Virus record (IMG/VR): IMGVR_UViG_2563366798_000003
Span: 1-51,413 of that record
DNA length: 51,413 bases
Strand: one strand, 5' to 3'
DNA from: a virus
Lineage: Duplodnaviria; Heunggongvirae; Uroviricota; Caudoviricetes
The notes under the pieces were generated by a model. That model worked only from the letters and a program-made list of their open reading frames with translations. It made no database searches and was not told the origin of the DNA. The position numbers were made by a program, and so were the translations under genes. This document shows positions 1 through 14,151 of this stretch, in pieces; the first letter of the stretch is position 1, and each line of letters begins with the position of its first letter.

Positions 1-1143
1 CTATGCTGTTTTGATATCTACGATAATCCAGTCTTTACCACGATCATCATTGTATCGGTCGGTCATTTTTCTGGATTTATGACCTAACAACTTTTGCGTA
101 TCCAGCCCCTGTTCCCGATATAACCGTTCTGACAGAGATCGCTGCTCATGAAATGTGGGCGCAGTTCCTGGCTCCCATTTTATGCCACATTTTTCCCTGG
201 CCTTTTTAAAAGCCGTTGTAAGAGTATTTGCAGAAACCTGGTCTCCTCTGTTTGCTTGAGAGGTAGTGTGACGGTAATGGACCAGATATTTACTAACAAC
301 AGCATCCCTGCACTGAGATATAACTTCACGAAGGGTAATATTCAGAGCATCGCATTTCAGGCTAAGCGGAATAGCAAGTTTTGAACCGGTTTTTTCCTGA
401 GTAATGTGCAACATGTCGTCCCATATATCAGAGAATTTCAAATTGCAGATATCGCCTAAACGTTGTCCAGTGACAAGAGCAAGTAGCATCCCGCATTTTA
501 AATAGGGCTGCCGTCTGCTTACGCTGTCAAATATTGCCTGCCATTCGGACAGTGATAATCTTTGGCGGTTTACTCGATTTCGCGGTTGTTTTGTTGCCTG
601 CGCTGGGTTAAATCCTGGCGGAACATGTCCTGCGTGTTGTGCTTCTTTGAAGACGTCGATCAACACCATTCTCACGACTTGCGCCATCCTGTTATGACCT
701 TCAGCCTTTACAGCATCAATTATTTCGGCAATATCAAGTGCGGTAATATCCTTGAGGTGTTGCATTCCACAATGCTCACGGAAGAGACGAATGGGTTTGC
801 CTTTTTGCCGATAGGAGTTGGGTCTTAGTTCATTATGTTGCAGCCTGTCCTCCTGGATAGAAATATATTTATCAAGCCATTCTGTCACCGTAATGTCTGA
901 GCGCCTGCCTTTCATTCTTTCCAGACGCTCATTGACGCTTAATATTTGTCGGGTACGTTGTTCAGCAATAATGGTATTTGCTTCAGTAGCAACCTGTTTT
1001 GCTTCATTCTCATCAGTTCCTAAACTATGAAAACGACCGGATAGTGGATGTTTGTATTGCCAATATACCTTTCCGGTTCGCTTATCTAATTTGCAATATA
1101 AATTGGGTATAGAGATTTTGTGAGATCGGGGTCTAGCAGCCAT
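1..1143 (-). CDS. int: tyrosine integrase, lambda Int family
   Basis: 380-aa ORF; C-terminal region (TFHEQRSLSERLY...LLGHKSRKMTDRY) resembles the lambda Int catalytic C-terminus; stop codon at positions 1-3; overlaps upstream xis-like ORF by 11 nt. Confidence 0.9.
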   Translation of the reverse strand: MAARPRSHKISIPNLYCKLDKRTGKVYWQYKHPLSGRFHSLGTDENEAKQVATEANTIIAEQRTRQILSVNERLERMKGRRSDITVTEWLDKYISIQEDRLQHNELRPNSYRQKGKPIRLFREHCGMQHLKDITALDIAEIIDAVKAEGHNRMAQVVRMVLIDVFKEAQHAGHVPPGFNPAQATKQPRNRVNRQRLSLSEWQAIFDSVSRRQPYLKCGMLLALVTGQRLGDICNLKFSDIWDDMLHITQEKTGSKLAIPLSLKCDALNITLREVISQCRDAVVSKYLVHYRHTTSQANRGDQVSANTLTTAFKKAREKCGIKWEPGTAPTFHEQRSLSERLYREQGLDTQKLLGHKSRKMTDRYNDDRGKDWIIVDIKTA

Positions 1144-3088: not shown

Positions 3089-3243
3089 ACACTCTCCCGT
3101 TTATTATTTATCTCCTCAGCCAGCCGCTGGGCTTTCAGCGGATTTCGGATAACAGAAAGGCCGGGAAATACCCAGCCTCGCTTTGTAACGGAGTAGACGA
3201 AAGTGATCGCGCCTACCCGGATATTATCGTGAGGATGCTTCAT
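3085..3243 (-). CDS. small protein (52 aa), translationally coupled between exo and the 250-aa gene
   Basis: ATG overlaps the exo stop (ATGA) and its stop overlaps the ATG of the next gene (ATGA); a divergent second copy lies at 51059-51154. Confidence 0.4.
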
Positions 3244-3920
3244 TGCCATTGCTCCCCATATACAAAACCAATTTCAGCCAGTGCCTCGTCCATTTTTTCG
3301 ATGAACTCCGGCACCATCTCGTCAAAACTCGCCATGTACTTTTCATTCCGCTCAACCACGACATAATGCAGGCCTTCACGCTTCATGCGCGGGTCATAGT
3401 TGGCAAAGTACCAGGCATCTTTTCGCGTCACCCACATGCTGTACTGCACCTGGGCCATGTAAGCCGATTTTATTGCCTCGAAACCACCGAGCCGGAATTT
3501 CATGAAATCCCGGGAGGTAAACGGGCATTTCAGTTCAAGGCCGTTGCCGTCACTGCATAAACCATCGGGAGAGCAGGCGGTGCGCATACTTTCGTCGCGA
3601 TAGATGATCGGGGATTCAGTAACATTCACGCCGGAAGTGAACTCAAAGAGGGCTCTGGCGTCGTTCTCGTACTGTTTTCCCCAGGCCAGCGCCTTAGCGT
3701 TAACTTCCGGAGCCACACCGGTGCAAACCTCGGCAAGCAGGGTGTGGAAGTAGGACATTTTCATGTCAGGCCATTTCTTTCCGGAGCGGGGTTTTGCTAT
3801 CACATTGTGAACTTCTGAAGCGGTGATGACGCCGAGCCGTAATTTGTGCCACGCATCATCCCCCTGTTCGACAGCTCTCACGTCGATCCCGGTACGCTGC
3901 AGGATAATGTCCGGTGTCAT
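3240..3920 (-). CDS. exo: lambda-type exonuclease (Red alpha)
   Basis: 226-aa ORF matching the lambda Exo sequence from memory almost residue for residue ([50 protein letters not shown]...). Confidence 0.95.
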
Positions 3921-4702
3921 GCAGCCACCTTCTGTTCAGAGGCTTTCTGTTTCAGGAATCCAAGAGCTTTCATTGCTTCTGCCTGTGTCAGTTCTGACGA
4001 TGCGCGAATGTCGCGGCGAAATATCTGGGAACAGAGTGGCAATAAGTCGTCATCCCATGTTTTATCCAGGGCGATCAGCAGAGTGTTAATCTCCTGCATG
4101 GTTTCATCGTTAACCGGAGTGATGTCGCGTTCCGGCTGGCGTTCTGCAGTGTATGCAGTATTTTCGACAATGCGCTCGGCTTCATCCTTGTCATAGATAC
4201 CAGCAAATCCGAAGGCCAGACGGGCACACTGAATCATGGCTTTATGCCGTAACATTCGTTTGGGATGCGACTGCCACGGCCCCGTGATTTCTCTGCCTTC
4301 GCGAGTTTTGAATGGTTCGCGGCGGCATTCATCCATCCATTCGGTAACGCAGATCGGATGATTACGGTCCTTGCGGTAAATCCGGCATGTACAGGATTCA
4401 TTGTCCTGTTCAAAGTCCATGCCGTCAAACTGCTGGTTTTCGTTGATGATGCGGGACCAGCCATCAACGCCCACCACCGGAACGATGCCGTTCTGCTTAT
4501 CAGGGAAGGCGTAAATTTCTTTCGTCCACGGATTAAGGCCGTATTGGTTGGCGACGATCAGCAATGCGATGAACTGCGCATCGCTGGCATCGCCTTTAAA
4601 TGCTGTCTGGCGAAGAGTGGTGATCAGTTCCTGTGGGTCGACAGAATCCATGCCGACACGTTCAGCCAGCTTCCCTGCCAGCGTTGCGAGTGCTGTACTC
4701 AT
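3917..4702 (-). CDS. bet: single-strand annealing protein Bet (Red beta)
   Basis: 261-aa ORF matching lambda Bet ([69 protein letters not shown]...); overlaps exo start by 4 nt. Confidence 0.95.
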
Positions 4703-4707
4703 CCGTT

Positions 4708-5004
4708 TTATACCTCTGAATCAATATCAACCTGATGGTGAGCAATGGTTTCAACCATGTACCGGATGTGTTCTGCCATGCGCTCCTGAAACTCAACATC
4801 GTCATCAAACGCACGGGTAATGGCTTTTTTGCTGGCCCCGTGGCGTTGCAAATGATCGATGCATAGCGATTCAAACAGGTGCTGGGGCAGGCCTTTTTCC
4901 ATGTCGTCTGCCAGTTCTGCCTCTTTCTCTTCACGGGCGATCTGCTGGTAGTGACGCGCCCAGCTTTGAGCCTCAAGACGATCCTGAATGTAATAAGCGT
5001 TCAT
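4708..5004 (-). CDS. gam: RecBCD inhibitor Gam (short GamS-length form)
   Basis: 98-aa ORF matching the C-terminal 98 residues of lambda Gam; AGGAG Shine-Dalgarno 7 nt upstream; in-frame stop at 5059-5061 excludes the long form. Confidence 0.9.
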
Positions 5005-5079
5005 GGCTGAACTCCTGAAAATGGCTGTGAAAATATCGCCCGCTAAATGCCAGGCTGATTAGGTAAACAGGAAAGGGGA

Positions 5080-5286
5080 TTAGTGATTCAGGCCGTTGCC
5101 GCGTCCGTCGAGAAAAACTTCCACGAGCAAATCACGGGTATAAGTGCGCTCGATGCCGCGATGCAGATAAAGCCGTCCGCGTAAATTAGCTGATGCAGTC
5201 CAGGTACCATCTTTGTGTTTGACCAGCATTCCTGGCATGACCGCACCGCGATTAACGGTCTGCGTTCCGTAATGTTGATGAACCAT
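5080..5286 (-). CDS. hypothetical protein (68 aa), first well-supported gene downstream of the pL-like region
   Basis: ATG preceded by AGGAG at optimal spacing; position corresponds to the lambda kil/cIII/N early-left block, but no similarity recognised. Confidence 0.45.
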   Translation of the reverse strand: MVHQHYGTQTVNRGAVMPGMLVKHKDGTWTASANLRGRLYLHRGIERTYTRDLLVEVFLDGRGNGLNH

Positions 5287-5559
5287 AAAAACTCCTGCCC
5301 GTAAGCTGGGCTGCTGAACAAATAAGGGGTTGCGCAGTATCTGGCGGTGGATGGCCGCCGGTTGTCATAACTAAGTCGCCTCGTTGAAGCAACTGAGGTA
5401 TGAAGTGTTGAGTTGATTTCAGCTGGTCACACCGACGTTCACGCGTCCGTTTCACCCCTCGCACTCCCCGGAGCCTGCTGAAATTCAAGCTGCGGATCTA
5501 AGCGGTCATCGCAACGGTGAATCAGGTGGTTGCCGTATCGTTGTGTTGTTGCGACATGG

Positions 5560-5645
5560 TGATAATAGCTATTGCTATTGGTGATATCAATGCTTATTGC
5601 TATTGTTAGATGTGTTTTGCTATTAAATGTTTGATAGCAAAAAGA
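5560..5645 (-). promoter_or_regulatory. putative OL/pL operator-promoter region
   Basis: Three direct copies of TTGCTATT (5572, 5597, 5617) plus inverted ATAGCAA (5634-5640); same half-site recurs in the cI-cro intergenic region. Confidence 0.45.
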
Positions 5646-5730
5646 ATTAATTTTGTAACTTGAATCGCATAGCGATAACTGAAGCGAGGTCGTGGTGGTT
5701 TTTTGAACGGTTTGTGTGATGAGGGGAGGC

Positions 5731-5757
5731 AAAAGAAAACCCGGCACGGTGGCCGGG
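5731..5757 (-). terminator. rho-independent terminator after the 317-aa gene
   Basis: CCCGGC / GCCGGG stem (5740-5745, 5752-5757) followed on the minus strand by a U-run (plus-strand AAAAGAAAA 5731-5739). Confidence 0.5.
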
Positions 5758-5762
5758 TATCT

Positions 5763-6716
5763 TTATTCGAATGGAAGATCTATTTGCCTTTGAGGATTCA
5801 ACTGTTTTTTTACATGCTCAATTTCGAATATGGTTTTTATGGCATCTCCGATCATATATTGAGTTACTTTTAAATCTACAAGTAACATATCACCTTTAGA
5901 AAAATTTAAGGTGTTGTTATCAATATCGCTGATGAATTTCTGGTCTTTTATTTCAGCCAAAAAGCTACTGGCACCATCAGAAAACCGCCACCGGCTTCCT
6001 TCATTGAAGGAAATATTTTTAATTTGAAGGGCTTTCTCTACTGTGTACTCTGAAATTATTGATTCTGCTGGTAGATTGACTTTGAAATAATGTGCTTCTT
6101 GCTTGTTGATCGTCATGAATGTCAAACCATCATCGACAGTAGAGGCAAAGCTGTCAATGCCTTCCTGCTCTAATGGCTTACTTATAACTTCTTGTAATGA
6201 AGAGCGAAGTTTAATATTTTTATAAAGTTCAATAACGTTACTGTCGTAGATCTCGCTTTCGTCATCAACAAAGACTTCGATGTTGCTATCAGGCAAATTG
6301 TGTAATTTTTTTATTTTCCTTGGACCTATCCATTTTATCAGTTGAATTAGGCCTTTGCATATTTTTTCTTTAGAACCAGGACAGAGTCCAATAAAAGCAA
6401 TCAAATTCGCAGCGGCTGTTGCTGAATCGCCGGATAAAAAATCAACAGCCTGTTTGAACCAAGATGTAGATGAGGCAACCAGATCTATTCCAAATGAGCC
6501 AGCTTTAAATGATGCATTGACTTTTACAGAAACAACAGTCTTGTTTCCGTAGAGAGTTTTACCGGCTTCCTCTAATGCATCTGATAGTGATAGAAGGGCA
6601 GGAGCAAGGTCTCGCACGTTCATTTCATGCGTTTCCAGTGCCGGACCGTCGTATACTATCCTGAACTTCATATCATTGGTTTCCGAATTGTTGCCCGCAT
6701 CCATTATGGCATTCAC
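5763..6716 (-). CDS. hypothetical protein (317 aa) in the lysogenic rex slot between cI and pL
   Basis: Long AT-rich ORF on the cI strand, directly downstream of cI and followed by a terminator; no recognisable domain; start ambiguous (ATG at 6716 or 6704). Confidence 0.75.
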   Translation of the reverse strand: MNAIMDAGNNSETNDMKFRIVYDGPALETHEMNVRDLAPALLSLSDALEEAGKTLYGNKTVVSVKVNASFKAGSFGIDLVASSTSWFKQAVDFLSGDSATAAANLIAFIGLCPGSKEKICKGLIQLIKWIGPRKIKKLHNLPDSNIEVFVDDESEIYDSNVIELYKNIKLRSSLQEVISKPLEQEGIDSFASTVDDGLTFMTINKQEAHYFKVNLPAESIISEYTVEKALQIKNISFNEGSRWRFSDGASSFLAEIKDQKFISDIDNNTLNFSKGDMLLVDLKVTQYMIGDAIKTIFEIEHVKKQLNPQRQIDLPFE

Positions 6717-6777
6717 CTGATCACATATACAGTTAATTTACGATATTGTCTTAAATCTTAAAACTTCTATTGTATGG

Positions 6778-7506
6778 CTACCCATGCTTCCTATACGTCT
6801 GCGGCATGCTCCCAATAACCTTACCGAAGATGAACACCCGGTTCATCTCGTCTTTCTCGATCGGGTCCCAAGGTGAGTAGCTCTTGTTATCAGAGATAAC
6901 CAGCAGCTTATCCTTCATCATTTGCAGACGCTTTACATGGGCTGTGTCGTCGTACAGAAACGCATAGATACCATCACCGTCGAAAGATTTAACCGTGATA
7001 TCAACGAACAGCAGATCACCTGGTTCGATCGTTCCTGACATGCTGTCACCACGCACGTTAATGATGCGGATATTTTCCGCCTTCCTGCCATCGAACATGT
7101 GACGAGCATCGTCAAACGAGTACTCAACCGAGCGTAGAACTTCTACAAACTCACGATTGATGACACCCGGCCCGGCACTGACTTCTATATCAAGAACGTC
7201 AATCTTGAAGTATTTGGAATGGTTGACAGCAGGCTTCCCTGATTGTTGACCGTCATTTCTCATCGGGCCTATGCCTGATGAGAGCCACTCAGTTCGAACA
7301 CCCAATGCATTAGCTATTTCAACAATTTTTGTTGAGCCGCGCGCGTTGCCGCTTGTCAGTCTCCAGATTGTGGGTTGAGCTACGCCAGACGCCTTTGCAA
7401 GAGCGCCTTGAGACATTCCAGATTGTTCCATCGCTAGGTTTAAGCGATCAGCAAGAGTTTCTTTTTTCATAAGTTTTAATTTATACGCTCGCGTATTGAT
7501 GGTCAA
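6778..7506 (-). CDS. cI: CI-type repressor (HTH + S24 LexA-like peptidase domain)
   Basis: 242 aa; N-terminal HTH (MSQGALAKASGVAQPTIWRL), C-terminal S24 signature GDSM and putative Ala-Gly cleavage site; divergent from the Cro-like gene. Confidence 0.9.
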   Translation of the reverse strand: MTINTRAYKLKLMKKETLADRLNLAMEQSGMSQGALAKASGVAQPTIWRLTSGNARGSTKIVEIANALGVRTEWLSSGIGPMRNDGQQSGKPAVNHSKYFKIDVLDIEVSAGPGVINREFVEVLRSVEYSFDDARHMFDGRKAENIRIINVRGDSMSGTIEPGDLLFVDITVKSFDGDGIYAFLYDDTAHVKRLQMMKDKLLVISDNKSYSPWDPIEKDEMNRVFIFGKVIGSMPQTYRKHG

Positions 7507-7580
7507 AACACGTTTTGCTATTGATTGGGTTAATACGCATTGCTATTATCTATTCATTGCAATACCAATAGGAATTGATA
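7507..7580. promoter_or_regulatory. putative OR/pR/pRM operator region
   Basis: Divergent cI/cro intergenic region with near-palindrome CAAAACACGTTTTG (7506-7519) and two TTGCTATT half-sites. Confidence 0.5.
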
Positions 7581-7808
7581 ATGACAAATCAAACCATTCA
7601 ACTCGCAATCAGTATTACAGGTAGTCAAAAACGACTGGCAGATCTATGCGGTGTAGCCCAACCCACTGTTTGGCGTTGGCTACACGGTGGCGGAATTGAT
7701 GCCCGCTATGTAATGAAAATTGTCTCAGCCACTGGTGGAAAGATTAAACCAGCAGATATTCGTCCCGACCTCGCACCATTGTTTAACGCGAGTAATTCTG
7801 CCGCCTAA
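7581..7808 (+). CDS. cro: Cro-like HTH regulator
   Basis: 75 aa from ATG at 7581 (AGGAA SD upstream); HTH QKRLADLCGVAQPTVWRW; divergently transcribed from cI. Confidence 0.75.
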   Translation: MTNQTIQLAISITGSQKRLADLCGVAQPTVWRWLHGGGIDARYVMKIVSATGGKIKPADIRPDLAPLFNASNSAA

Positions 7809-7832
7809 ACTGCGGCGTTAACTGATAAGGCA

Positions 7833-8378
7833 ATGACTATGCAATCACTTACATACCAACAGACTAGCGGATTTAGCCCGACTGCGGTGATAAATCGTTC
7901 TCAAACAAAACAGGCGCCAGGCCACGAAAAAATCCGTGATGCCGTTCGCGCCTGGTCGGCTGCAGATAATCAGGATGTTGTTGCCGCACTCATTGTGAAT
8001 GAGTATCGGGAGCAGGGCGGCGGCACCATCGATTTCCCTGATGATGTCAGCCGTGCACGCCAGAAGCTGTTCCGCTTCCTCGATAACAAATTCGATTCTG
8101 AAAAATACCGAAATAACGTGCGTGAACTGACCCCGGCAATTCTGGCGGTACTACCGCTGGAATATCGCGGCCACCTGGTTGGGCAGGATAGCTTCATGGC
8201 TCGGCTGGCTGAAATGGAAAAGGAACTCAGTGAGGCAAAACAGGCTGTCATTCTCAACGCACCACGCCACCAGAAACTGAAGGAGATGAGTGAAGGCATT
8301 GTGTCGATGTTTCGTGTGGACCCGGATCTGGCTGGTCCACTGATGGCGATGGTCACCACCATGCTGGGGGCAATATGA
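7833..8378 (+). CDS. early regulatory protein in the cII position (181 aa)
   Basis: ORF between cro and O; larger than lambda CII and not recognisably homologous. Confidence 0.55.
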   Translation: MTMQSLTYQQTSGFSPTAVINRSQTKQAPGHEKIRDAVRAWSAADNQDVVAALIVNEYREQGGGTIDFPDDVSRARQKLFRFLDNKFDSEKYRNNVRELTPAILAVLPLEYRGHLVGQDSFMARLAEMEKELSEAKQAVILNAPRHQKLKEMSEGIVSMFRVDPDLAGPLMAMVTTMLGAI

Positions 8379-8464
8379 CAGGTTCAGAAATGGCGAAAGC
8401 CGGTCTGCGCGAACAGAACCGACTTTCAGGTGCAAATCGTAACACACTCATTGCGGGAGGAATT

Positions 8465-9394
8465 ATGGCAAACACTGCTGAGATATTCAATTTTCCAGTG
8501 CCGGATGTGGCACAAAAGGAGCCGCGCGTGGCAGATCTCGATGATGGTTATACGCGCATTGCAAATGAGTTGCTGGAAGCTGTAATGCTGGCCGGATTAA
8601 AACAGCACCAGCTTCTGGTCTTCCTGGCTGTCATGCGCAAAACATATGGCTTTAATAAAAAACTGGATTGGGTGAGCAACGAGCAACTTTCCGAATTGAC
8701 CGGGATATTGCCGCACAAGTGTTCTGCTGCAAAAAGCGTTCTGGTAAAGCGTGGGATTCTTATTCAGAGCGGGCGGAATATCGGCATCAATAATGTGGTC
8801 AGTGAATGGTCAACATTACCCGAATCAGGTAAGAAAAATAAAGTTTACCTGAAAGAGGTAAATTTACCTGAGTCAGGTAAGAAAAGTTTACCCAAATCAG
8901 GTAAAGGCACTTACCCGAATCAGGTAAACACAAAAGACAAACTAACAAAAGACAATATAAAACCTTTTTCGTCCGAGAATTCTGACGAATCCTCTGACCA
9001 GCCAGAAAATGCCCTTCCTGTGGTGAAACCGGATGCTGCGATTCAGAGCGGCAGCAAGTGGGGGACAGCAGAAGACCTGACCGCCGCAGAGTGGATGTTT
9101 GACATGGTGAAGACCATCGCGCCATCAGCCAGAAAACCGAATTTTGCAGGGTGGGCTAACGATATTCGCCTGATGCGTGAACGTGACGGACGTAACCACC
9201 GCGACATGTGCGTGCTGTTCCGCTGGGCATGCCAGGACAACTTCTGGTCCGGTAACGTGCTAAGTCCGGCCAAACTCCGCGACAAGTGGACCCAACTCGA
9301 AATCAACCGTAACAAGCAACAGGCTGGCGTGACAGCCGGAAAACCAAAACTCGACCTGACGAACACTGACTGGATTTACGGGGTGGAGCTATGA
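8465..9394 (+). CDS. O: replication initiator O (divergent N-terminal DNA-binding domain, lambda-like C-terminus)
   Basis: C-terminal about 110 residues match lambda O (SDESSDQPEN...WIYGVEL); GGGAGG SD before ATG at 8465; iterons inside the gene. Confidence 0.85.
   Translation: MANTAEIFNFPVPDVAQKEPRVADLDDGYTRIANELLEAVMLAGLKQHQLLVFLAVMRKTYGFNKKLDWVSNEQLSELTGILPHKCSAAKSVLVKRGILIQSGRNIGINNVVSEWSTLPESGKKNKVYLKEVNLPESGKKSLPKSGKGTYPNQVNTKDKLTKDNIKPFSSENSDESSDQPENALPVVKPDAAIQSGSKWGTAEDLTAAEWMFDMVKTIAPSARKPNFAGWANDIRLMRERDGRNHRDMCVLFRWACQDNFWSGNVLSPAKLRDKWTQLEINRNKQQAGVTAGKPKLDLTNTDWIYGVEL
8817..8965 (+). repeat. ori iterons plus AT-rich tract within O
   Basis: Four about 18-bp direct repeats TTACC(C/T)(G/A)A(A/G)TCAGGTAA(G/A) at 8817, 8864, 8888, 8911 plus partial copy at 8843, followed by A-rich stretch 8930-8965. 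Confidence 0.75.
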
Positions 9395-10741: not shown

Positions 10742-12289
10742 CTACTTGTCTTTTTTAATATGTTCAATCTCATCATTAAGACATTTATCTATTTTTTTTA
10801 TTAACACATTAATTTCTTCGGTGTTTTGGAGTTGAGTTGTCTTAGAAACAAAAACTCGAATAAAGAATTTAACATAGTGATAGGGTTGAAGTACATCGTT
10901 ATACTTACATAAATCATTTATTGTATACTTGCCGCCTGTTTCTTTTTTTATTATTTTAGCTTGACTTGTATCGATATCTTTAAAGTTATCTTCAATCTGA
11001 AAATCAAGAACCCATTCATCTCCTTTTAAATTATCCTCAATGATTTTGTTGATTTTCTTAGATATATTTTGTTTATATTCTTTGTATCTGTTGTCGGAAA
11101 TGTTAACATTAGAAAACGTGTGTTTTTTTTCATATATTTTTTTCCAAACATTTCTATCAACAATATCTTGAATTATAGCTTGAGAATTTTTATCTAATGT
11201 GTTTTTAAGAGTGTTTTCTAAAAACGTTTTGTCTGGGTTTTCACGATAAAAGTGTTTGATGGACTCAATGAGAGTGTTTTTAGATTTTAAAGAGACAACA
11301 TCATCAGTTTTTTTTCTAGAACACGCTTTGTTAAGCATCGCAGATAGTGCACGATTGGTCTTATGAAAATAAACTTGACTATAAAGCCCACTTCTTGCAT
11401 TGGCAAATTCTAGTATTGAATCCATACCACTTTCTTTATATGCCAGGTAAACACTATTTTCAACTTTCACAGGAATAAATGACATTAATAATCGTCCATA
11501 ATCATAAATCCCATATTTAACGCCGGAGAAGTAGCTATCTCTAAGTAGGTAGTCCATTCTGTCCGCATCTATAGGTGAAGATGATATGATTGAACATAAT
11601 AAAGGATATACATTTACTCCCTCAATGTTATTTTTAAAATCATATCTTTTATCAACAATTTTTATAATGCTTTCTGGATTAATAGCCGCTATGTTTTCTT
11701 TATAGACATCGTCGTCATTTGATTTATCTTGGGCTTCATTTTTTAATTCTTCAATAATTTCTTTAATAAAAATACATGATACTTGTTCGTGGGTTAACTT
11801 GTCATTATCACTTAAAGATATAATCTTATCGTATTGTTTATTTCCTTCAGTTTTGCATTTTTCTTTGAAATCTTTTACGGATATTGCAAAACTATCGAAT
11901 TGGTGGGCAAGTGGGCCATGCCCAACATCGTGTAACAATGCTGCAATACGTAACTCCTGTATAAGACTTGAAGGCATTTTTTTTATATCTAAATATAGAT
12001 CAATGCCCATATTTTTTCGGTCATAAATTAATGCATTCAAATTTATATTTTTCAAAATCTCATACGATAAATGCATTACACCGACAGAGTGTTCAAAGCG
12101 AGAGTGCATTGCAGAAGGAAATACTTTATATAGAAACGTGTTCTGCCTGATATCTCGTAGTCGTTGGAATAAAGGATGGTCAATTATCTTTTTTTCTAGC
12201 TTAGTTATTCGAATCACTCCATGTATGGGATCTAAAAACTTCCCCAGAAGTAAGTCTTCAAAGTTCTCAAGTTTGTTTTTGTTTGTCAT
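10742..12289 (-). CDS. HD-domain phosphohydrolase, Dgt/SAMHD1-like putative dNTP triphosphohydrolase
   Basis: 515 aa; motifs H-x-x-H (HSRFEHSVGVMH), HD (LLHDVGHGPLAH) and D-x-D-R-x-D-Y-x-x-R-D (DADRMDYLLRDSYFSG); AAGGAAAG SD; strongly AT-rich, opposite strand to flanking phage genes. Confidence 0.85.
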   Translation of the reverse strand: MTNKNKLENFEDLLLGKFLDPIHGVIRITKLEKKIIDHPLFQRLRDIRQNTFLYKVFPSAMHSRFEHSVGVMHLSYEILKNINLNALIYDRKNMGIDLYLDIKKMPSSLIQELRIAALLHDVGHGPLAHQFDSFAISVKDFKEKCKTEGNKQYDKIISLSDNDKLTHEQVSCIFIKEIIEELKNEAQDKSNDDDVYKENIAAINPESIIKIVDKRYDFKNNIEGVNVYPLLCSIISSSPIDADRMDYLLRDSYFSGVKYGIYDYGRLLMSFIPVKVENSVYLAYKESGMDSILEFANARSGLYSQVYFHKTNRALSAMLNKACSRKKTDDVVSLKSKNTLIESIKHFYRENPDKTFLENTLKNTLDKNSQAIIQDIVDRNVWKKIYEKKHTFSNVNISDNRYKEYKQNISKKINKIIEDNLKGDEWVLDFQIEDNFKDIDTSQAKIIKKETGGKYTINDLCKYNDVLQPYHYVKFFIRVFVSKTTQLQNTEEINVLIKKIDKCLNDEIEHIKKDK

Positions 12290-12648
12290 GAGGCTTTCCT
12301 TTTGCTGTAGTTATAATACGAAATTTAAATAGTAATGATGTTTATAGTTTCAATGTGTTATCTAATGGTTAACACATTGTGATGTAGCATATCAATATGG
12401 ATTCATATGTTCAATTGGTCTGTGGAGTTTAGTTATGAATAAGATTGATTCTGGTAATACTTTGTAGTTTAAGCTAGAGGCGGGATTCGTGATGTTCAAA
12501 TCAGTATGTAATGGAGGTTGTGCATTAGTACTTGCTGCTGGAAATTAAAAATAAAGTTGCAAGTAATCGACGTTTTCCGGGAGGAGGATGTAAGCATCGC
12601 TGACCAAAAAGTATCAACGATGCCTGTTTTGTTTTAACTACAAATTAA

Positions 12649-14151
12649 TTAAATTGCATCTGCAAACTCTGTGATTTTTCGCTCAAGTATGATTGATGAG
12701 TTGCTGTTGTCGATTTTTTTATTTTCATGATTACGAATAGCCAATGACTCATTAAAGTCTTTTGCGACTGCTGTCTCAATAAATTCAATTTCTGAATCAG
12801 AGTGTTTTTTAACAGCTTCTTTGATCTCATCCAGAGTAACATAGAAAAACTCTTTTCTACGATTTACAAGATTGACTCTCTTTTTATCGAAGACATCATG
12901 TAGTTTTTTTTCTAATGATGGAGCGTCCTCCGAATAAATCATGGCATGCACATCAAAAATAAAAGGAACAGATGCATCACCAAGCTCATTTACACGGTCT
13001 TGTGGATCAAGACGTCGTGTCATGCCTATTTTATAAACATTCTCCCCAAAAGAACCTATGTTCGAAATAATATAAACATGACCTTGTTTGGTTTGTTGTG
13101 CCATGGATAATGCTCTTTGATGCTTTGATTCAGCCTGCGACAAACTCTGTTCTAGTTCGGCAATGCGATTTTCGAGGCGCTGCTTCATGTCACCAGTAAC
13201 TTTTTCCATTTCCTTTCTTGCAGCTTCAATTGCTTTTTTATAACGGCGCTCTTCTGCCTCTGCGTCTTGCATGGCCTTTTCTATTTCTCGTTGTGCACGC
13301 TCCTCCTCTCTCATTTGTGCCCTTATTTCTGCCTGTTCTTCTTTTTCTTTCTGTTTTTGCTCACGATATTCATGGGTAAGCCACAACTCCTCAAGTTTTT
13401 TATTAAGGTATTTAGTATTTATATATATGTGATTTTGCTCGTTTAGTTTATTTATGGCCTCAAATGCCTTTGTGATGCGTTCTTCCATTTTAGTGATATT
13501 TTTCCACGTGCAATTACTAATTGCAGCATCACATTCATTATTAAATGCTCTAGTAGTTAGCCTAATATTTCTGTCTGTCATTTTTTTACCCTCTGCTCGA
13601 GAGCCTTCAACAGTCCATTGGGTTGTGCAATATACTGCACCAGAGTGGGTTTTATCCCGCAGCATTAATTTCTGTTCATCCCTGATGGATTTTATTTTGT
13701 TTTTAAATTGCTCTGAATCTTCAAAATTAAAATGAGGTTCGTAAAATCCTAGTTCGGCTAGTTCAACATCTTCTGAATAAATAGAAATTTGCTTTACTAG
13801 CTTATCATATATTTCTTTCTTCTCTTTATAAGTTCTTCTTAGTTCTTGGATTTGTTTATTGATACCATCCATTTTTTCAATGGTGTTTGTTAGTTCATTA
13901 TTGGCATTTTCTTTTACTTTTTGGGACTCTTCTTTTATAATGGAGCATTCTTGCTCTGTTTTCTCAATAAGCTTCTTACATTCCTCTTCCACATTAAAAT
14001 AATCTGCAAAGCGAGATTTGTATTCTTCATTTTTTTGATTGCTATCACTTAATTCTAATTGTATTTTTTTGATGCGTTTGATTGCAGCTATATATAGAAC
14101 AAGAACAACCAATAAAAATATGATTGCAAGTAATAGTGGAGTTTGAGTCAT
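12649..14151 (-). CDS. membrane-anchored coiled-coil protein with C-terminal T5orf172/GIY-YIG-like domain
   Basis: 500 aa; N-terminal hydrophobic helix (LLLAIIFLLVVLVLYIAAI), long charged coiled-coil segments, C-terminal GHVYIISN...VYKIGMT...VPFIFDVHAMIY motif; AAGGA SD. Confidence 0.8.
   Translation of the reverse strand: MTQTPLLLAIIFLLVVLVLYIAAIKRIKKIQLELSDSNQKNEEYKSRFADYFNVEEECKKLIEKTEQECSIIKEESQKVKENANNELTNTIEKMDGINKQIQELRRTYKEKKEIYDKLVKQISIYSEDVELAELGFYEPHFNFEDSEQFKNKIKSIRDEQKLMLRDKTHSGAVYCTTQWTVEGSRAEGKKMTDRNIRLTTRAFNNECDAAISNCTWKNITKMEERITKAFEAINKLNEQNHIYINTKYLNKKLEELWLTHEYREQKQKEKEEQAEIRAQMREEERAQREIEKAMQDAEAEERRYKKAIEAARKEMEKVTGDMKQRLENRIAELEQSLSQAESKHQRALSMAQQTKQGHVYIISNIGSFGENVYKIGMTRRLDPQDRVNELGDASVPFIFDVHAMIYSEDAPSLEKKLHDVFDKKRVNLVNRRKEFFYVTLDEIKEAVKKHSDSEIEFIETAVAKDFNESLAIRNHENKKIDNSNSSIILERKITEFADAI

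Follow-up and report, generated by a model that had tools for sequence, protein, structure and literature searches.

Phage lambda has tripartite operators at two promoters that are separated by about 2 kb. The -10 region is covered by operator 1 and the -35 region by operator 2, and OR2 abuts the -35 region of pRM. The centres of the lambda OL sites are spaced by 24 and 20 bp. The accessory genes rexAB and a terminator are located between cI and OL, the cI mRNA is leaderless, and the repressor carries an S24 self-cleavage domain. The 14-bp core of the phage 434 operator is conserved in its outer 4 bp and variable in its central 6 bp, and CI and Cro of 434 have recognition-helix residues in common. 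The nearest described immunity region to the one studied here is that of BTP1/ST104, a P22-like Salmonella phage of the same immunity type. BTP1 shows very high spontaneous induction (PMC5322425), and in BTP1 lysogens cI and the downstream gene bstA form one operon with one start site (PMC7067206).

The stretch of DNA that we analysed (51,413 nt, called the window) is a complete lambda-like prophage. The features that surround its immunity region are listed below; the early-left genes exo, bet, gam and kil were named from the annotation of near-identical phages.

1-1143, minus strand: int, followed by xis
3240-3920, minus strand: exo
3917-4702, minus strand: bet
4708-5004, minus strand: gam
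5080-5286, minus strand: kil, 68 aa
5739-5758, minus strand: intrinsic terminator, bidirectional, at the end of the cI-moron transcript before OL, conserved in relatives
5763-6716, minus strand: accessory gene between cI and OL, 317 aa, PADLOC candidate defence PDC-S42 (E 3.4e-86)
6778-7470, minus strand: cI repressor gene, 230 aa, HTH_3 and Peptidase_S24 domains, recognition helix AQPTIWRLTSG
7581-7808, plus strand: cro, 75 aa, YdaS / all-alpha Cro type, recognition helix AQPTVWRW, near that of CI
7833-8378, plus strand: YdaT-type cII analogue, followed by O, P and lambda-like late genes

The window resembled lambda in the arrangement of the putative operators and promoters, in the accessory gene and terminator between cI and OL, in the predicted leaderless cI mRNA and in the S24 domain. 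The centre spacings were 25 and 20 bp at OL and 25 and 25 bp at OR. It resembled 434 in its homologous CI N-terminal domain, in the operator geometry and in the similar helices of CI and Cro. Unlike lambda, it had the operator AATAGCAATTGCTATT instead of TATCACCGCCAGAGGTA, a fourth conserved half-site at OL, no N gene or nutL downstream of pL, a Cro protein of the all-alpha YdaS type and a cII analogue of the YdaT type. From 434 it differed in the recognition helix (AQPTIWR versus TQQSIEQ) and in the outer operator bases (ATA(G/C) versus ACAA). No lambda-like 17-bp site (up to 3 mismatches) was found inside 5556-5650 or 7478-7550, and the imm434 operator ACAA-N6-TTGT had no match anywhere in the window. 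The earlier note on this DNA had assigned it to a non-lambda immunity type, and this assignment was borne out by the lack of lambda- or 434-type operators at OL and OR. The comparison gives good support to the view that the switch would work like those of lambda and 434, with an ordinary lambdoid OL and an immunity that is neither imm-lambda nor imm434.

The relation to BTP1 was closer. The first 102 residues of CI were 77% identical and the recognition helix was the same, OR2 was identical, and OR1 differed by 2 bases and OR3 by 1. The layout of OL was also the same, the fourth element included, and the defence gene bstA occupies the slot after cI. The BTP1 cI-bstA operon (PMC7067206) matches the order cI, accessory gene, terminator and OL of the window, and we counted this in support. 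Unlike the window, BTP1 has an N gene, a boxA-like CGCTCTTTAAC that we read in its pL leader, and a podovirus backbone. A description of the operators was not found in the BTP1 papers. The motif and operator sequences were also not found in the searchable literature, which covered few subscription journals, so that an earlier description is possible.

The left operator-promoter region contained the following elements, of which the operators and the promoter are predictions:

5556-5643: immunity-specific OL/pL patch, 88 bp, delimited by alignment to phage PhiR5_1; the flanks are common to this heteroimmune relative
5562-5590, minus strand: predicted pL, -35 TTGATA (5590-5585), 17-nt spacer, -10 TATTAT (5567-5562)
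5564-5579: putative OL1, AATAGCTATTGCTATT, matching the consensus at 15/16 positions; 21.6 bits, rank 2 in the window
5589-5604: putative OL2, AATGCTTATTGCTATT; 14.2 bits, rank 6 in the window
5609-5624: putative OL3, GATGTGTTTTGCTATT, only its right half good; centre 20 bp from OL2
5624-5636, minus strand: IHF core match TATCAAACATTTA, perfect to the consensus WATCAANNNNTTR, overlapping OL3 at its end and the fourth element at its start
5633-5648: fourth element, GATAGCAAAAAGAATT; an operator-like half-site in the left half (5633-5640), the start of an A/T tract in the right half

Three direct copies of TTGCTATT on the plus strand (5572-5579, 5597-5604 and 5617-5624) and the inverted heptamer ATAGCAA (5634-5640) lay within about 80 bp, exactly as counted in the earlier note, and the two copies that it had reported from the cI-cro gap were located at 7515-7522 and 7540-7547. 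We carried out the motif search across the prophage that had been suggested there. Outside OL and OR, the octamer occurred as a single copy in 51.4 kb (370-377, minus strand, within int). In the whole window it was present 6 times versus 2.36 expected, and 2 of 100 shuffles reached this number; the heptamer was present 14 times versus 7.83 expected, a count reached by none of 100 shuffles. Of the 14 heptamers, six belonged to OL and OR and eight, as many as predicted by chance, to the rest of the window, so the motif was not equally frequent elsewhere. When the patch with its 27% GC was tested alone against sequences of matched composition, 203 of 20,000 dinucleotide shuffles contained some 7-mer at least four times (p ~0.01). 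The local repeat by itself is thus suggestive and not decisive as evidence for an operator.

The repeat could be extended to a symmetrical site. The inferred operator is a 16-bp palindrome with the consensus AATAGCAATTGCTATT, one half of which is exactly TTGCTATT, and has a 14-bp core of the form ATA(G/C)-N6-(C/G)TAT. The perfect palindrome is present in OR of phage Fraca. When a weight matrix was derived solely from the sites of other genera, 8 of the 10 top matches in the window fell within OL or OR, and 6 matches reached at least 14.15 bits versus 0.33 expected. By this scoring OL1 and OL2 were full sites and OL3 and the fourth element half-sites; OL3 was absent from the 25 best weight-matrix matches in the window. 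Among E. coli OL haplotypes the copy of TTGCTATT at 5617 is a minority allele, with TTGATATT at this position in 33 of 37, and the left half AATGC of the window's OL2 is rare. It is very likely that TTGCTATT represents one half of the binding site for the prophage's own repressor. In this respect the half-site reading of the earlier note stood; it had to be refined in that neither OL3 nor the inverted copy is more than a half-site, and the role of the inverted copy is less certain because of its overlap with an IHF core.

OL1 overlapped the predicted pL -10 by 4 nt, and OL2, centred 25 bp from OL1, overlapped the -35 by 2 nt. Predicted pL matched the consensus at 10/12 positions, its hexamers were conserved across genera, and its start is predicted near 5555-5557. 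It points away from cI, into kil-gam-bet-exo, and the cluster lies between the terminator of the cI-moron operon (5739-5758) and these genes. Gene order, terminator and the overlap with a predicted leftward promoter all agree with the earlier description of an OL-like cluster upstream of the early-left genes. With high confidence, although short of certainty, we assign 5556-5643 as OL/pL of a lambda-like prophage of non-lambda immunity, where CI dimers would occupy 16-bp sites. Another palindrome, ATCGCATAGCGAT, was observed at 5666-5678 between OL and the terminator. It is not a CI site, because it was identical in homo-immune and heteroimmune E. coli relatives.

The cI-cro gap contained a corresponding set of predicted elements:

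7478-7506, minus strand: predicted pRM, -35 TTGACC (7506-7501), -10 TAAATT (7483-7478)
7482-7497: putative OR3, TATACGCTCGCGTATT, between the -35 and -10 of predicted pRM
7507-7522: putative OR2, AACACGTTTTGCTATT, abutting the predicted pRM -35 and overlapping the predicted pR -35 by 2 nt
7521-7549, plus strand: predicted pR, -35 TTGATT (7521-7526), -10 TATTAT (7544-7549), with TG upstream
7532-7547: putative OR1, AATACGCATTGCTATT, overlapping the predicted pR -10 by 4 nt; 22.6 bits, rank 1 in the window

The offsets were the same at predicted pL and pR: a gap of 5 nt separates the -35 from operator 1, and 4 nt of operator 1 extend into the -10. The -35 of pRM was invariant across 9 genomes. 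The ATG of cI is located 7 nt past the predicted pRM -10, and therefore a leaderless cI mRNA is implied. Two overlapping operator-like 16-mers were seen at 7561-7582, in the interval from the pR -10 to the start codon of cro (AATACCAATAGGAATT, 16.3 bits, and AATAGGAATTGATAAT, 11.6 bits), and were partly conserved in other genera as AATAC..GGAAT. Since they overlap the ribosome-binding site of cro, their conservation may be translational.

We compared the sites with the proteins expected to bind them. Residues 6-66 of CI aligned to chains of the 434 repressor DNA-binding domain (E 2e-5 to 1e-4), the nearest solved relative of this domain, and the alignment placed AQPTIWRLTSG at the recognition helix. 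Cro aligned to all-alpha Cro proteins. Relatives were drawn from a phage database, with one genome per species, and from IMG/VR. The CI helix AQPTIWR was common to 11 phages and prophages of six genera, namely the window, E. coli PhiR30_1, Perceval, Fraca, Klebsiella ST11-VIM1phi8.2 and Salmonella BTP1, and the prophages of Kluyvera intermedia, K. cryocrescens, K. georgiana, Citrobacter pasteurii and Raoultella lignicola. All 11 had sites at both OR and OL, with the OL clusters 1.1-3 kb past the end of cI, in either orientation and often between unrelated flanks. The heteroimmune controls PhiR5_1 and a Klebsiella grimontii prophage, with the helix SQAAIQKIETG, had sites in 0/2 cases and a single stray heptamer each. 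The shared CI operator proposed earlier is consistent with this result, as the motif tracks the CI/Cro helix in 11/11 genomes versus 0/2 controls.

PhiR5_1 was of particular use. On either side of the patch, as far as 5555 and beyond about 5644, it is almost identical to the window, and in place of the 88 bp between them it has DNA with its own AACAAC/GTTGTT repeats, which recur in the PhiR5_1 OR. The left edge of the swap coincides with the predicted start of pL. The YdaT-type cII analogue was 96% identical between the two immunity types, and it is therefore not the specificity determinant, as PhiR5_1 lacks the motif. The IMG/VR locus L018 (2430-2620, reverse complement) and about 15 similar loci combined a 100% identical CI with another backbone and a second, unrelated OL region, which contained the two near-perfect operators AATAGCAATGGCTATT and AATAGCAATTAGTATT.

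In the cross-genus alignment the operators and promoter hexamers were kept, and spacers and flanks diverged. OL1 was conserved in 10 genomes of 6 genera, and the outer TATT of OL3 was also kept across genera. We furthermore determined substitutions among IMG/VR E. coli copies with about 100% identical CI. The OL values, in substitutions per column over 37 haplotypes from 65 loci, are descriptive contrasts without p-values, since haplotypes are not independent events:

OL1: 0.25 (4 substitutions in total)
OL1-OL2 spacer: 2.0
OL2: 0.62
OL2-OL3 spacer: 13.5
OL3: 1.06
OL3-fourth element spacer: 1.4
Fourth element: 0.31

At OR, 29 haplotypes had 12 substitutions in the 48 operator columns, 8 of these at the adjacent OR1 positions 5-7. 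The 9-bp OR2-OR1 spacer had 47 substitutions, and the OR3-OR2 spacer, which holds the pRM -35, had none.

These data bear on several other explanations. The idea that the repeats have arisen by chance in AT-rich DNA, or are TTGC direct repeats of the lambda CII type for an activator, can draw on the 27% GC of the patch, the local shuffle result (p ~0.01) and the TTGC contained in the motif. Chance is disfavoured because of the conservation in six genera, the co-variation with the helix and the population footprints, and also by the chance-level frequency of the heptamer outside OL and OR. The arrangement TTGC-N6-TTGC had two matches in the window and none in OL or OR, and the cII analogue was almost unchanged in the phage without the motif, so that we give this explanation next to no credence. 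It is also very improbable that CI does not bind the sites and that they serve Cro alone, or some further factor encoded in the swapped module. Co-variation cannot tell CI from Cro, nor exclude another factor of the module, because Cro and the CI N-terminal domain were always exchanged together. However, the two helices are almost alike (AQPTIWRL in CI, AQPTVWRW in Cro), and the position of OR2 beside the pRM -35 and of OR3 over pRM makes sense only for the repressor. Operators shared by CI and Cro are moreover the rule in lambda, 434 and P22, which counts against a site for Cro alone.

For the fourth element, binding by the repressor and binding by IHF are not exclusive. TGATAGCRAARNGAATTWATTTT of this element was kept in 10/10 aligned genomes. 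At the corresponding position PhiR5_1 has a half-site of its own, GGTTGT, the IHF core is gone, and only the A/T tract GAATTWATTTT is common. For this reason we favour an immunity-specific repressor half-site. According to the other reading, the inverted ATAGCAA and the fourth element would bind IHF and, together with an A/T tract upstream, stimulate pL, which is compatible with operators OL1-OL3. An arrangement of IHF and UP element upstream of lambda pL has been reported, and the region of the fourth element resembles it; Giladi, Oppenheim and colleagues are said to have described an IHF site with an upstream A/T tract that stimulates lambda pL. On the minus strand of the window, the predicted start is preceded at about 75 bp by a perfect WATCAANNNNTTR core, which has the A/T-rich AAAATTAATTCTTTTT 5' of it, and by eye the cross-genus alignment showed a perfect core in 8/10 relatives while its NNNN positions varied. 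However, the consensus has little specificity, as it matched the window 5 times versus 3.0 expected, and the conserved end of OL3 (TATTAA) together with the half-site TGATAGC accounts for most of the matching bases. An IHF site should also be independent of the immunity type, and in PhiR5_1 the core was swapped for the GGTTGT half-site. We consider a function as IHF site unlikely, but a possibility to be kept in mind. A still less probable proposal is that OL of this immunity family is a four-site operator with a dedicated distal role, as looping anchor or in coupling CI to IHF/UP, and that, separately, the N-less leader acts as a cis-acting antitermination RNA.

With CI as the preferred ligand, the following mechanism can be proposed, for which we infer binding, site order and affinity, cooperativity, looping and transcription starts from the sequence. 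CI dimers would recognise the 16-bp two-fold symmetric site AATAGCAATTGCTATT. With OL1 covering the -10 and OL2 the -35, CI bound to these two sites in a lysogen would stop RNA polymerase from using pL and so keep kil-gam-bet-exo silent, and OL3 and the fourth half-site, further upstream, probably give cooperative or long-range contacts. CI on OR1 and OR2 would shut pR, CI on OR2 could activate its own leaderless transcript from the adjacent pRM, and OR3 would serve negative autoregulation by CI. Cro, with its near-identical recognition helix, is expected on the same sites after induction, when repression would be lifted by RecA-stimulated self-cleavage of CI via the S24 domain.

The switch itself follows the lambda textbook pattern, and the outcome is an operator consensus and site map for a very common immunity type. 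We call it very common because, of 5,426 complete E. coli genomes, 2,195 contained the backbone region, 354 of them at 95% identity or more; IMG/VR contained 508 CI relatives. Known operators allow the prediction of co-immune prophages and the design of reporter and induction experiments. They also allow asking whether weak sites (OL3, minority alleles) relate to spontaneous induction.

The pL leader (5287-5555, minus strand) is a 270-nt non-coding stretch whose conservation extends to heteroimmune relatives. Neither an N-like gene nor a nut site was found between pL and kil, and an Rfam scan of 4900-8500 with E up to 1 gave only a spurious miRNA match. We considered a put RNA of the HK022 type in the leader and rejected it, as the fold z-score was -1.0 and blastn-short gave no similarity to the HK022 pL-nun region. 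An arginine-rich frame (5252-5488, minus strand, ...KRTRERR...) resembled an N-type motif and was rejected as a gene: it has no ATG, is interrupted by a stop in PhiR5_1 and, in the window, is separated from kil by a frameshift. Just upstream of kil, a 62-nt stretch (5343-5404) was 93.5% identical to an unannotated spot upstream of HK225 kil and 88% identical in three Enterobacter phages. It may represent a kil leader that has been conserved, or an element of translational control. The kil frame (5080-5488, minus strand) is open further upstream in Perceval, where it forms a single ORF of 139 aa. In the window a frameshift interrupts it and places the start of kil at 5286, and in PhiR5_1 its upstream part contains a stop. 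Annotated Kil lengths vary among close relatives.

The 317-aa accessory gene had no Pfam match. Its identity as BstA was rejected, since it did not match the BstA model in PADLOC and matched PDC-S42 instead. In relatives, the slot between cI and OL holds bstA (BTP1), an annotated HipA/HipD pair (PhiR5_1) or a ParA-like gene (Klebsiella phage). Because the cargo differs among relatives, the slot looks like a defence-gene hotspot, comparable to rexAB of lambda. An AT-rich island after gene P (10742-14151, minus strand) encodes a 500-aa PD-Lambda-1 defence protein (E 5e-198) with DUF4041 and T5orf172 domains and, beside it, a 515-aa HD-domain protein with no more than a marginal dGTPase match.
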